From a bacterium (GTDB lineage Bacteria > Patescibacteriota > Dojkabacteria > SC72 > WJKH01), in NCBI GenBank assembly GCA_029547225.1, contig JAKPPS010000028.1:12405-76404 (forward strand): a DNA stretch of 64,000 nucleotides, written 5' to 3'. Both the position numbers and the translations under genes were made by a program. Numbering within the stretch: the first letter of the stretch is position 1; each line of letters starts with the position of its first letter. Under the pieces are notes generated by a model. It was not told the DNA's origin. It did not search any database and was given only the letters and a program-made list of their open reading frames with translations. Below are positions 2,112-39,394 of this stretch, piece by piece.

Positions 2112-5400
<3,289 letters not shown>

Positions 5401-35487: not shown

Positions 35488-35964
35488 ATGAGATGTCCAT
35501 ATTGTGGTTCGAAAGAGAGTAGAGTAGTAGATAAAAGAGATGGTGCAGATGACGGAAATACTCGCCGCAGACGTGAGTGTCTTAAATGTTATAAGCGTTT
35601 TACTACATACGAGCGAATAGAAAATGTCGAGCTAGATGTGCTAAAAAAGGATGGGACTATTGAGAAGTTCAATCGTGATAAGATTATTCGAAGTATAAAT
35701 AAGGCTATAAGTAAAAGGCCTATATCTGATGATCAGGTGTTAAAACTCGTAGAAGATATTGAAATGAAGCTGTTAAATCGTAAGGCTAGCGTGATTAAAT
35801 CATCAGAAATAGGAAAAATGATTTTAAATAGGCTTAAATGGCTCGATGGCGTTGCATATATGCGTTTCGCATCGGTATATAAAGATTTTGAGAATCTAGA
35901 CGATTTTCAGACTGAATTAATCTTATTAAGAGAGTATTATGCACAAGAACGAAAAAAGCATTAG
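35488..35964 (+). CDS. nrdR: Transcriptional repressor NrdR
   Basis: MRCPYCGS...CLKCYKRFTTYE zinc ribbon followed by an ATP-cone. Confidence 0.95.
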   Translation: MRCPYCGSKESRVVDKRDGADDGNTRRRRECLKCYKRFTTYERIENVELDVLKKDGTIEKFNRDKIIRSINKAISKRPISDDQVLKLVEDIEMKLLNRKASVIKSSEIGKMILNRLKWLDGVAYMRFASVYKDFENLDDFQTELILLREYYAQERKKH

Positions 35965-38275
35965 TAGTACGAAAACTACAAAAGTCAGTAATATTCACAA
36001 TATAACAATAAATGGAGAAATAGTTGATAAAAATTTGACTAATATCCCCAATCCTATACGTAAAAGAGACGGAAGAGTAGTCCCATTTGAGTTTACTAGG
36101 CTAGCCAATTCGATTTTCAAGTCAGCACAGATTATTGGTGGTGATGATAGGGAAAGAGCTAATGAGGTTGCAGTAGAGATAGTTAAGAAAATTCGTTCAA
36201 GGCACAGTGATACTGAGGAGATTATAGAAACTACAGAAATCTACGATATTGTCGTTGCGACTTTAGTTGAGATGGGTCATGGAAAAACAGCTAAATCATA
36301 CACTTTATATCGAGATCTTAACACACGAGTTCGTAATATTAAATCGCTTATCGATGCGGACGAGTTGATCAAAGGTTATATTGATAGTGTTGACTGGAGG
36401 GTTAACGAGAATGCCAATATGTCTTATTCTTGGCAGGGATTAAATAATCATATATCTTCTACGGTACAGTCAAATTACTGGCTTTGGAGTATTTATCCAA
36501 AAGAAGTATCAAATGCGCATGTTAATGCAGATTTACATATCCATGATCTCGGTATGCTTGCGATTTATTGCTGTGGATGGGATCTCCGACAGTTGTTGAT
36601 GAAAGGTTTTAGAGGTGTTCCTGGTAAAGTAACTTGTTCTCCAGCGAAGCATTTTAGGACTGCTTTAGGCCAAGTTGTTAATTACTTCTATACTTTGCAG
36701 CACGAGGCTGCAGGTGCTCAAGCTTTCTCAAGCTTTGATACTTATCTTGCACCATTTATCAGATATGACAAACTTGAATACAAGGAAGTTAAACAAGCAT
36801 TACAGGAGTTCGTATTCAATATGAATGTCCCGACTAGAGTTGGTTGTCAGACTCCATTTACAAATGTGACTTTAGATTTGAAACCATCAGGTCAGTTGGC
36901 ACAAGAATCAGTGATAATCGGTGGCAAGCCAATGCCAGAAAAATATGAAGATTTCCAGGAAGAAATAGATATGTTTAATCGTGCCTTTGCTGAAGTGTTG
37001 ATGGAAGGAGATGCTGAAGGTAGGGTTTTCACATTCCCAATTCCTACATACAATATTACATCTGATTTTGATTGGGATAATAAAGTGCTTGATCCGGTTT
37101 GGGAGATGACAGCAAAGTACGGAATTCCATATTTTGCAAATTTTGTTAACTCAGATATGAAACCAGATGATGTTAGATCAATGTGTTGTCGATTAAGAAT
37201 TGATAACCGTGAACTACGGAAAAGAGGTGGTGGTTTGTTTGGTTCCAACCCGATGACGGGAAGTGTTGGTGTAGTTACAATCAACATGCCACGGATCGGA
37301 TATGTTGCGAAAACAAAGGAAGAATACCTGAAACGACTTGGTGAGCTCATGGATATCTCTAGAAAGAGTCTTGATATTAAAAGACAAACAATAGAGAAAT
37401 ATACTGAAAGAGGGTTATATCCATACTCAAGATTTTATTTAGCAGAGGTTAAAGAGCGCTTCGGAGAATATTGGAAGAACCATTTCAATACTATTGGTAT
37501 TTGCGGAATGAATGAATCTGTACTTAATTTTCTCGGCAAGGATATTGTACATGATGAGGGTCGTGCATTTACTCTGGAAGTCTTAGATTTTATGCGAGCT
37601 AAACTGATGGAGTATCAGCAAGAATCAGGCCAGATATTCAACCTTGAGGCCTCACCTGCAGAAAGTGCGGCCTATCGATTTGCTAAAAGTGATCGCTCAA
37701 AATATCCGGATATTTATGTCGCAAACGATCCAAGATATAAAGCAAATGTGGTTGGCTCTTGTTGCGAAAATTGTATAGATAGTGATTGCAAAGATACTGG
37801 TTCGTCAGATCCAAGTTTTGCACCTTTCTACACTAATTCAAGCCAGTTACCAGTTGATAGTACCGATGATATTTTTGGTGCATTAGATCATCAAGATGAA
37901 ATTCAATGTAAATATACTGGTGGTACAGTTTTACATATTTTCTTGGGAGAAAGATTACCGTCAATCAAGAGTACAAAAGAGCTTGTTCGTAAAATTGCAC
38001 AAAATTACAAGATGCCATATTTCTCAATAACTCCAACATTTAGCATATGTCCAAAACATGGGTATCTAGCAGGTGAACACGAATTCTGTCCAAAATGTGA
38101 TGCTGAGATAGGGTATGAAGAAGGTAAAGATTCTTTAAAGAGTGCAGATACAAAAGTTGCGAATGTAGAAGAGGGCTCAAATACAGATAAAGATGATGCA
38201 AAACTTTCAGTGTCTGGTAAAAATGTAGAGCATTTAAGAAAACAGAATGATACGAGTGATAGAGTAGTAGGTTAA
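35939..38275 (+). CDS. nrdD: Anaerobic (class III) ribonucleoside-triphosphate reductase, large ORF ending inside the glycyl-radical motif
   Basis: N-terminal ATP-cone (RKRDGRVVPFEF). NrdD core blocks (HIHDLG, CCRLRIDNRELRKRGGGLFG, LEASPAES). First zinc-ribbon pair CPKC at 38087. The ORF ends ...SDRVVG-TAA. Confidence 0.9.
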   Translation: MHKNEKSISSTKTTKVSNIHNITINGEIVDKNLTNIPNPIRKRDGRVVPFEFTRLANSIFKSAQIIGGDDRERANEVAVEIVKKIRSRHSDTEEIIETTEIYDIVVATLVEMGHGKTAKSYTLYRDLNTRVRNIKSLIDADELIKGYIDSVDWRVNENANMSYSWQGLNNHISSTVQSNYWLWSIYPKEVSNAHVNADLHIHDLGMLAIYCCGWDLRQLLMKGFRGVPGKVTCSPAKHFRTALGQVVNYFYTLQHEAAGAQAFSSFDTYLAPFIRYDKLEYKEVKQALQEFVFNMNVPTRVGCQTPFTNVTLDLKPSGQLAQESVIIGGKPMPEKYEDFQEEIDMFNRAFAEVLMEGDAEGRVFTFPIPTYNITSDFDWDNKVLDPVWEMTAKYGIPYFANFVNSDMKPDDVRSMCCRLRIDNRELRKRGGGLFGSNPMTGSVGVVTINMPRIGYVAKTKEEYLKRLGELMDISRKSLDIKRQTIEKYTERGLYPYSRFYLAEVKERFGEYWKNHFNTIGICGMNESVLNFLGKDIVHDEGRAFTLEVLDFMRAKLMEYQQESGQIFNLEASPAESAAYRFAKSDRSKYPDIYVANDPRYKANVVGSCCENCIDSDCKDTGSSDPSFAPFYTNSSQLPVDSTDDIFGALDHQDEIQCKYTGGTVLHIFLGERLPSIKSTKELVRKIAQNYKMPYFSITPTFSICPKHGYLAGEHEFCPKCDAEIGYEEGKDSLKSADTKVANVEEGSNTDKDDAKLSVSGKNVEHLRKQNDTSDRVVG

Positions 38276-38359
38276 GCGTGTGGCAGTTACTGCCCCCACT
38301 GCCAGAGGTAGTAACAATATTGTTTAAACAGGTAGTAATAAATTATTATTAAAATCAAA

Positions 38360-38536
38360 ATGCAACAAGTTAAAGTTAGCCAAGTCAAAGACTTAAGTCA
38401 ACAAAGACAAAGATGTGAAGTATATTCAAGAGTTGTCGGCTATATCAGACCTGTCGCTCAGTGGAATAAGGGGAAAAAGGCTGAATGGAATTCCCGCAAA
38501 ACTTTTATTGAAGGATGTACGACTTGTTCTTGCTAA
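38360..38536 (+). CDS. 58-codon ORF encoding the NrdD glycyl-radical C-terminus (not in the supplied track, which omits ORFs under 60 aa)
   Basis: My translation: MQQVKVSQVKDLSQQRQRCEVYSRVVGYIRPVAQWNKGKKAEWNSRKTFIEGCTTCSC. It contains the RxxGY radical loop and the conserved WN.GK..E tail. It is in the same frame as nrdD. Confidence 0.6.
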   Translation: MQQVKVSQVKDLSQQRQRCEVYSRVVGYIRPVAQWNKGKKAEWNSRKTFIEGCTTCSC

Positions 38537-38608
38537 TACATATCTTGCAGGCTTGATTTCTTCATATGCTAATCTGAACTGATCAGATTGCAATAATATT
38601 TCTTATAA

Positions 38609-39394
38609 ATGAGACCTATATATTTTATCGAAAAATCTACTCTGTTGGATTATCCTGGCAAGATAGCCTCAATTATCTTCAATTGGGGCTGTAACTTTAG
38701 ATGTCCATTTTGTCATAATCCAGAGCTTGTAGTTGAGAGTCCGAGCTCAATGTTAATCAATAAAGATGGGGTGATTTCTTTTCTGAAAAAACGATTAGGG
38801 AAGATAGATGCTGTAGTTTTTACTGGTGGAGAACCTTTTGTAAATCCGGAAACAATAGATTTTGTTAAGGAGGTGAAGGATTTGGGTTTCCTCGTAAAGA
38901 TGGATACTAACGGTAGCTTTCCTGATAAATTGCAATATTTAATTGATAATCGTTTGGTTGATTATATTGCTATGGATATTAAGAACGATTTGACAACATA
39001 CTTAAGAACAATAGGACTTGAAAAACAGCACGAAGAATCTGTGAAACAACTAGGGGATATTGATATACACAATGATAATTCCGTGAAACAGAGCCCATTA
39101 AGCTTGTTAGAACGGGTAAAAGAAAGCATATCAATAATTATGGCAACTTCAGAAGCTAATTATCTGATAGATTATGAATTTCGTACGACTTTTGTACCTG
39201 GACTTCATTCAATTGATTCTGCTAAGGGTATTGGTGAATTGATACGTGGTGCAAAAATATTTTATGTGCAGAATTTCAGGCCTGGGAAAACATTGGATCC
39301 TTTATATTTGAAAAAGAATGGTTTTACTGATTCGGATCTGAAATCCTTTGCAGATACTATCTCAAAATATGTTGATGAGGTGGTTATTAGATAG
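38609..39394 (+). CDS. nrdG: Anaerobic RNR activating enzyme (radical SAM)
   Basis: CNFRCPFCHN (CxxxCxxC) near the N-terminus and a GGEP glycine-rich SAM motif. Sits directly downstream of nrdD. Confidence 0.9.
   Translation: MRPIYFIEKSTLLDYPGKIASIIFNWGCNFRCPFCHNPELVVESPSSMLINKDGVISFLKKRLGKIDAVVFTGGEPFVNPETIDFVKEVKDLGFLVKMDTNGSFPDKLQYLIDNRLVDYIAMDIKNDLTTYLRTIGLEKQHEESVKQLGDIDIHNDNSVKQSPLSLLERVKESISIIMATSEANYLIDYEFRTTFVPGLHSIDSAKGIGELIRGAKIFYVQNFRPGKTLDPLYLKKNGFTDSDLKSFADTISKYVDEVVIR

Follow-up and report, generated by a model that had tools for sequence, protein, structure and literature searches.

To our knowledge, glycyl-radical enzymes have been described with the radical glycine on the catalytic chain, and GrcA (also YfiD) is the only known free radical module. 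The class III ribonucleotide reductase (RNR) NrdD of phage T4, Escherichia coli, Thermotoga maritima (4COI) and Prevotella copri (8P23) is a single chain that unites an ATP-cone, a catalytic barrel and an RVVGY loop, and the gene of its activase, nrdG, lies next to its own. In the T. maritima enzyme, the barrel and the radical loop are separated by a ribbon whose CxxxHx6CxxC motif binds a zinc ion. The radical glycine of this enzyme is Gly621 (PMC4493059). The subject of the present analysis is the nrdD locus of a member of the Dojkabacteria (WS6, CPR), which the names of matching records and the origin of the samples point to as an inhabitant of anaerobic digesters. The locus is contained in a window of 64,000 nucleotides (contig JAKPPS010000028.1 of assembly GCA_029547225.1), to which all coordinates below refer. 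This locus resembles the single-chain systems in its ATP-cone, barrel, RVVGY loop and adjacent nrdG, and the T. maritima enzyme in a zinc ribbon of the CxxH...CxxC type, whereas it differs from them in having a large chain that stops past the zinc ribbon and a separate polypeptide of 58 residues that bears the radical loop together with the last helix. The operon nrdR - nrdD(large) - nrdD(small) - nrdG very probably encodes a class III RNR in two polypeptides.

Among described systems, GrcA embodies the concept of an autonomous glycyl-radical spare part, in that case for pyruvate formate-lyase (PMC8683613). Like GrcA, and like T4 Y06I, the small NrdD chain is a small stand-alone homologue of the partner's C-terminal radical domain, and it presumably shares with GrcA the use of the same activase and the insertion into a body without a working radical domain. 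GrcA, however, backs up an intact PflB after oxygen damage, and is a protein of ~127 aa with the Gly_radical domain PF01228 whose gene is unlinked to pflB, while here the small NrdD protein matches only PF13597, is of a kind measuring 40-90 aa, is encoded inside the operon and has a partner without a homologous radical domain. The small NrdD chain is the only source of the radical glycine, and would therefore be obligate rather than a spare like GrcA. A division of an RNR chain near the C-terminus into two adjacent genes is also known from the split class II enzyme NrdJa/NrdJb of Pseudomonas aeruginosa, in which turnover depends on an element of the C-terminal piece (PMC4860495, PMC9669993). 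NrdJa/NrdJb differ from the present pair in being a B12-dependent class II enzyme, and NrdJb is a folded unit composed of an IscU-like and a zinc-finger domain with redox cysteines and has no radical site; such split domains have been treated as possibly distinct to class II (PMC9669993).

The assignment of the large open reading frame (ORF) to class III NrdD is based on the barrel profile together with the N-terminal ATP-cone, the zinc ribbon and the adjacent nrdG, all of which are present. The ATP-cone occupies aa 40-128 (PF03477, 1.5e-16) and the NRDD catalytic barrel aa 157-721; the ORF matches PF13597 at 1e-179 over positions 1-528 of 562, and NF006126 over positions 4-652 of 684 with 1008 bits against a cutoff of 548. 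Absent is the radical glycine of an RVxGY motif near the C-terminus of the same polypeptide, the homologous loop being found on the 58-aa ORF. The first ~38 residues of the large ORF (35939-36055) fall outside the family profile and have a low pLDDT, and its true start may lie downstream of 35939. In several relatives of ~1000 aa (P0048, P0058, P0092, P0116, P0120), an intein (PF14890) is inserted in the large subunit, the end of which is still without a radical motif.

In the sequence-only reading of the window, the large ORF was said to stop exactly inside its glycyl-radical motif and to hold only the first cysteine pair of the zinc ribbon. Direct reading and translation confirmed that the ORF of 778 codons terminates in ...SDRVVG, its last Gly codon (GGT, 38270-38272) being followed directly by TAA, but the description as an interrupted motif is misleading, as homology to NrdD ends at about residue 725 and the terminal RVVG belongs to a lineage-specific tail of 55 residues. 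The statement on the cysteines was mistaken. The zinc site C704-x2-H707-x9-C717-x2-C720 was aligned to CxxxHx6CxxC of T. maritima NrdD and lies wholly inside the large ORF, and no further CxxC occurs in the contiguous, single-chain relatives; the premise of a missing second pair thus does not hold for this NrdD subfamily. The zinc ribbon is the last element common to the large ORF and single-chain NrdD, and alignment places the split between the ribbon and the radical hairpin. The Cys of RCEVY was considered as a fourth, chain-bridging zinc ligand and rejected, because T. maritima NrdD has no Cys at this position and its site is CxxxH...CxxC.

The 58-codon ORF encodes MQQVKVSQVKDLSQQRQRCEVYSRVVGYIRPVAQWNKGKKAEWNSRKTFIEGCTTCSC, including QRCEVYSRVVG27YIRPVAQWNKGK as had been read, and comprises the glycyl-radical loop RCEVYSRVVG27Y, a C-terminal helix and a Cys-rich end, CTTCSC. 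Residues 18-53 align with residues 612-647 of T. maritima NrdD, so that Gly27, encoded by GGC at 38438-38440 and located 165 nt past the first Gly codon, matches Gly621. A Pfam scan of the 58-aa ORF returned PF13597 (NRDD) only, with no PF01228 at E <= 0.01.

Of the readings proposed from the window alone, comparative genomics gives strong support to the one in which the enzyme has two pieces and the glycyl-radical mini-subunit is free. Ninety-one loci were compiled from GTDB species genomes and metagenomes, a scan of the GTDB species genomes having returned 80 additional loci. The radical motif occupies a separate downstream ORF in 85 of the 91 and is contiguous with the large gene in the other six, and every locus has exactly one such motif. 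In the 85 split loci, the large gene stops just past the zinc ribbon and a separate gene of 40-90 codons holds the glycyl-radical loop. The loci of the GTDB scan belong to CPR bacteria, DPANN archaea, Thermoplasmatales, Synergistaceae and Armatimonadota, as well as to Sphingobacteriaceae, Rhodobacter, Rhodovulum, Thiohalocapsa and dozens of Pseudomonas and Stutzerimonas species. The gene order nrdR - large nrdD - small ORF - nrdG is common to all relatives whose gene context was examined; in the wider set, three Synergistaceae loci (L036, L037, L040) have the small ORF beyond nrdG, at a distance of 700-800 nt from the large gene on its downstream side. When the split NrdD family is defined by a large gene ending soon after CPxC and one separate operon ORF of 40-130 aa with C-E-x-[YW]-[ST]-R-x-x-G-[YF], the window locus fits the definition. 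Judging from these loci, the two-gene form is the common state of this NrdD subfamily (of the NCBIfam PRK08270 type) across bacteria and archaea.

Protein searches gave a consistent picture. Among the best 120 homologues of the large ORF (63-72% identity), 118 end 10-30 residues past CPKC without a radical glycine, and the only contiguous exceptions, P0011 and P0019, read ...CPKCDEEIGD-MTVNAKEGNRQRCEVYSRVVGY. Both have the appearance of a split pair that was fused again with its former initiator Met retained, which suggests that the two forms interconvert and are functionally equivalent. With the small ORF as query, an exhaustive phmmer search yielded 2886 matches at E <= 0.001 among 1.84 billion representatives, and the best 150 of them (50% identity clusters) are all stand-alone proteins of 44-128 residues; at 90% clustering, at least 224 stand-alone homologues of 40-100 residues were counted. 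RefSeq annotates the small genes of Pseudomonas and Rhodobacter as 'anaerobic ribonucleoside-triphosphate reductase', and a NrdD fragment of P. aeruginosa ends ...CPKCDEELLQRSTPKSCCGGCG, without the radical motif. At least two Cys were seen at the free C-terminus of the large subunit in 8 of 78 split loci (including the tails of L050, L062, L063, L074, L078 and L094) and in the P. aeruginosa fragment P0391 (...SCCGGCG), and the CTTCSC of the small subunit of the window (38516-38533) is likewise a Cys cluster. Such Cys-rich free C-termini are reminiscent of the tails that act as redox shuttles in reductases of classes I and II, and a C-terminus released by the split may serve in a role of this kind.

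The layout itself is real. The exact 778-aa protein was found on 11 contigs, and a stretch of 621 bases around the gap is shared without any difference by four further independent assemblies (L001-L004), so that the gap-region DNA recurs unchanged in at least five independent metagenome assemblies, the window included. The same layout is kept by the strain variants L008-L013 and by the sister species L014/L015. A spurious stop introduced by assembly or sequencing has nothing in its favour beyond the a priori possibility in any metagenome assembly, and, given that L001-L004 come from different projects and assemblers, is a negligible explanation. The factual statements of the sequence-only reading were partly confirmed and its interpretation partly supported.

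Selection was estimated from the comparison of the window with L014/L015, in which synonymous sites are near saturation (pS 0.56-0.77). The dN/dS was 0.025 for residues 1-725 of the large ORF, 0.088 for the small ORF and 0.093 for small-ORF codons 1-18. Purifying selection of this strength on both ORFs implies that both genes are functional, and since codons 1-18 are conserved as protein, the small ORF would be read from its own start. Gene decay, in which nrdD would have become a pseudogene by nonsense mutation with the 58-codon ORF as leftover, could draw on the low-complexity tail and on the six in-frame stops of the 84-nt gap (G(stop)ACGSYCPHCQR(stop)(stop)QYCLNR(stop)(stop)(stop)IIIKIK). 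It conflicts with the purifying selection on both ORFs (0.025 and 0.09), with the conservation across phyla of an architecture that has one radical motif per locus, and with the intact nrdR and nrdG, which Pfam matches bear out; moreover, the 64-kb window contains no second nrdD. Decay was accordingly discarded as highly improbable. An alternative genetic code was also dismissed, for TAA and TAG end most long ORFs of the window, and the standard code therefore applies.

The tail of the large ORF is composed of two parts, a near-neutral middle and a selected end. Against L014/L015, the last 20 codons, GKNVEHLRKQ(N/S)DTSD(R/K)VVG, show nine synonymous and two non-synonymous changes (pS 0.77, pN 0.11), which indicates selection at the protein level that extends to the terminal Gly; the sister species has a tail ending KVVG-TAG. 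The chance that a given tail ends in [RK]VVG is ~2.5e-5 per protein, and a VVG end occurs in only one of 121 large subunits examined. When the tail was used to query protein sequences, mostly short fragments were returned, and an (R/K)VVG tail was found in no other lineage. The proposal that the ~20 codons before each RVVG align weakly was not sustained, the alignment being no better than chance, with a shuffle p of 0.23 for the window and of 0.11 for the sister species. In an AlphaFold model of the large ORF built on a 57-sequence alignment, residues 730-778 have pLDDT < 50 and the tail is disordered, and so the model says nothing on docking of the tail. A split intein was rejected, as the tails and the small-ORF N-termini are far too short and variable.

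Downstream of the stop lies an intergenic element of 38 nt, a single copy in the window, which is 100% identical between the window, L008 and L014/L015 in spite of differences at 56-77% of synonymous sites. Its stem appears in the centroid folds and begins 11 nt past the stop of the large ORF; the conserved pairing is that of 38286-38294 with 38307-38315, and the take-off codon is not part of it. Folding of the gap is no more stable than that of shuffled sequences (z = -0.4 and -1.1). Of the hairpin arms first proposed, GGCAG at 38282-38286 and CTGCC at 38290-38294 are present as given, whereas the second CTGCC lies at 38299-38303, one base from the position claimed; the GTAGTA repeats at 38264, 38308 and 38332 are correct. 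A metagenome scan with the stem arms gave 110 matches, of which only L105 was the true element, from the same organism, and supplied no further lineage for covariation. A promoter and terminator scan detected no terminator and no enrichment of promoters. A minus-strand ORF at 38287-38388 was rejected, since the sister species has indels that disrupt it and the substitutions follow the pattern of plus-strand coding.

The selected tail end and the 38-nt element enter the case for translational bypass of the T4 gene 60 type, in which ribosomes would take off at GGU-UAA and land on GGC 165 nt downstream, yielding a single chain ...SDRVVG-YIRPVAQW... with the predicted junction ...DRVVGYIRPVAQWNK / VVGYIRPVAQWNK, and the tail peptide and stem-loop would act as signals. 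As in gene 60, a Gly codon directly followed by a stop, a nearby stem-loop, a conserved upstream peptide and a second Gly codon downstream are all found; the Gly codons form pairs each of which could be read by one tRNA, GGT with GGC in the window and GGA with GGA in the sister species L014, a comparison that covers two lineages only. Unlike gene 60, in which 50 nt are skipped, the locus would require a hop over 165-172 nt, more than threefold that length; the two Gly codons of the window are not identical, and in the sister species the take-off codon lies outside the stem. The 165-nt gap of the window holds 26 small-ORF codons conserved as protein, with an ATG of their own, and a hop would delete the family-wide RCEVYS strand. 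In the sister species, the small ORF is out of frame (91-nt gap), the tail is KVVG rather than RVVG so that the product would read KVVGY, and the possible pairing of GTA-GTA-G with UUACUGC is lost (GTT GTT). Across the family, no frame is preferred: offsets of 0, 1 and 2 relative to the large ORF occur at 33, 25 and 27 loci, i.e. at random, the gap between the ORFs ranges from 0 nt (TAG-ATG) to ~130 nt, and 85 related loci employ two separately initiated genes. Such a hop is accordingly unlikely in the extreme, and no better prospects are given to its genus-wide version, in which the (R/K)VVG tail, the stop and the 38-nt stem-loop would be a programmed bypass or a termination-linked signal in this Dojkabacteria genus, some ribosomes hopping ~165-172 nt to give a single-chain besides the two-piece reductase.

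The T4 nrdD gene carries a group I intron, and with this precedent, and the two ORFs of the window being in frame, removal of an intron or other intervening sequence at the RNA level could also be imagined to join them. The frame offsets are random in the family, however, and the sister species is out of frame; besides, the gap of 84 nt here, and of 0-30 nt in many relatives, could not accommodate an intron of group I or group II. Rfam searches of the whole window, and of 35-40 kb at E <= 1, revealed nothing in the gap. The only match nearby, RalA-like at 38588-38698 over the nrdG start, scored 24 bits versus a gathering score of 170 (E = 0.025) and was treated as noise. Excision is thus hardly conceivable, and a junction from glycine to glycine, whether by hopping or by excision, is unsupported, in view of the frame of the sister species and of the selected small-ORF codons that the gap includes.

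As to the origin of the split, an in-frame S-Y-C-P-H-C at 38285-38302 (TAC TGC CCC CAC TGC) coincides with the 5' arm and loop of the hairpin, and had been regarded as relic-like. This suggestion gained some support, since other Dojkabacteria carry TTACTGTCC just upstream of the small-ORF ATG as a copy of their own [FY]CP coding DNA. The motif is similar to the [FY]-C-P-K coding DNA of the same locus with p < 0.002 in L005, p = 0.002 in L016 and p = 0.012 in L023. The sequence TATTTAAATTATTACTG(T/C)CCAAAA was observed right before the small-ORF ATG in L005 (5075-5083), L007 (5193-5201), L016 (2836-2844) and L023 (2843-2851). An apparent copy of the zinc-ribbon coding segment hence sits ahead of the small gene, in keeping with a split that arose through local duplication followed by complementary loss, and the S-Y-C-P-H-C copy of the window may have been left behind by that duplication. 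The diverged duplication first put forward is possible but unproven.

In the two-chain enzyme proposed here, the large chain would supply the ATP-cone, catalytic barrel and zinc ribbon and end after the ribbon with its lineage-specific tail, while the 58-residue chain, translated from its own ATG, would contribute the last helix and the beta-hairpin that bears Gly27 as radical glycine. NrdG would abstract a hydrogen from Gly27 on the free or bound small chain, the loop of which would dock in the barrel of the large chain like the C-terminal domain of single-chain enzymes, and reduction would then run as in those enzymes. Glycyl-radical enzymes are cleaved by oxygen at the glycine. A plausible advantage would be that oxygen destroys only a cheap, replaceable cartridge of 6 kDa, and that activation in trans becomes possible; this rationale is derived from such cleavage and from the precedent of GrcA (PMC8683613). 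Chain assembly, activation by NrdG and any repair advantage are inferences.

Several points weigh against the two-chain enzyme. It leaves unexplained the selected (R/K)VVG-stop tail and the invariant 38-nt stem-loop that follows. Both chains are known in this organism from their genes alone. No Shine-Dalgarno (SD) motif precedes the small ORF in 38331-38359, whereas in Pseudomonas, Thermoplasmatales and DPANN, AAGGAG(G) is situated 6-9 nt ahead of its ATG; this absence carries little weight, because an SD-like motif precedes just 2 of the window's 32 long ORFs. The 3' end of the 16S rRNA (1440-1470) has the usual CCTCC anti-SD, though SD-like motifs are this scarce.

The features of the locus are compiled in Table 1; nrdR overlaps the start of the large nrdD ORF by 26 nt.

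Table 1. Features of the split nrdD locus (window positions).
Feature	Position	Strand	Basis
nrdR, transcriptional repressor of nrd genes	35488..35964	+	Pfam Zn_ribbon_NrdR and ATP-cone matches
nrdD large subunit, 778 codons + TAA	35939..38275	+	Pfam PF03477, PF13597; NCBIfam NF006126
Complete zinc ribbon, C704-P-K-H707 ... C717-P-K-C720	38048..38098	+	Invariant in 57 homologues; aligns with T. maritima site
Variable low-complexity linker, aa 727-758	38117..38212	+	dN/dS 0.64, indels versus L014; AlphaFold pLDDT < 50
Conserved tail end GKNVEHLRKQNDTSDRVVG + TAA, radical-loop look-alike stopping exactly at Gly	38213..38275	+	Codon changes versus L014/L015
Intergenic element of 38 nt, GTGTGGCAGTTACTGCCCCCACTGCCAGAGGTAGTAAC	38278..38315	+	9-bp stem 38286-38294 with 38307-38315, 12-nt loop
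A/T-rich conserved block GGTAGTAATAAATTATTATTAAAATCAAA directly upstream of small-ORF ATG	38331..38359	+	Conserved in alignment with L014
nrdD small subunit, 58 codons + TAA	38360..38536	+	Pfam NRDD 531-562/562; NF006126 648-684/684
nrdG, radical-SAM activase	38609..39394	+	Pfam Radical_SAM and Fer4_12 matches; adjacent in relatives

Elsewhere in the window, a 23S rRNA match at 2113-5400 extends over 3288 nt against a model of 2925 positions, with ~360 nt of extra sequence inserted in which Rfam recognized no intron family. An arginyl-tRNA synthetase gene of 947 aa, from ~42033 onward (L001 11095-12337), has an N-terminal B3_4 domain (PF03483), which is normally located in the PheRS beta chain.

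The literature searched yielded no account of a class III reductase (NrdD) in split form; it included a 2022 survey of RNR insertions and extensions and a 2026 review of glycyl-radical enzymes, and with moderate confidence split NrdD is held to be undescribed. As the small genes are already annotated in databases, the novelty consists of recognition and mechanism rather than of sequence. The analysis indicates that a large clade of class III RNRs, including enzymes of Pseudomonas, routinely keeps the radical on a separate protein of 5-7 kDa. It makes testable how the activase gains access to a buried glycine, whether a radical can be installed or exchanged in trans, and whether oxygen damage is repaired by swapping the cartridge. 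For annotation and heterologous expression, it means that an 'nrdD' cloned from such organisms would be inactive without the small gene.

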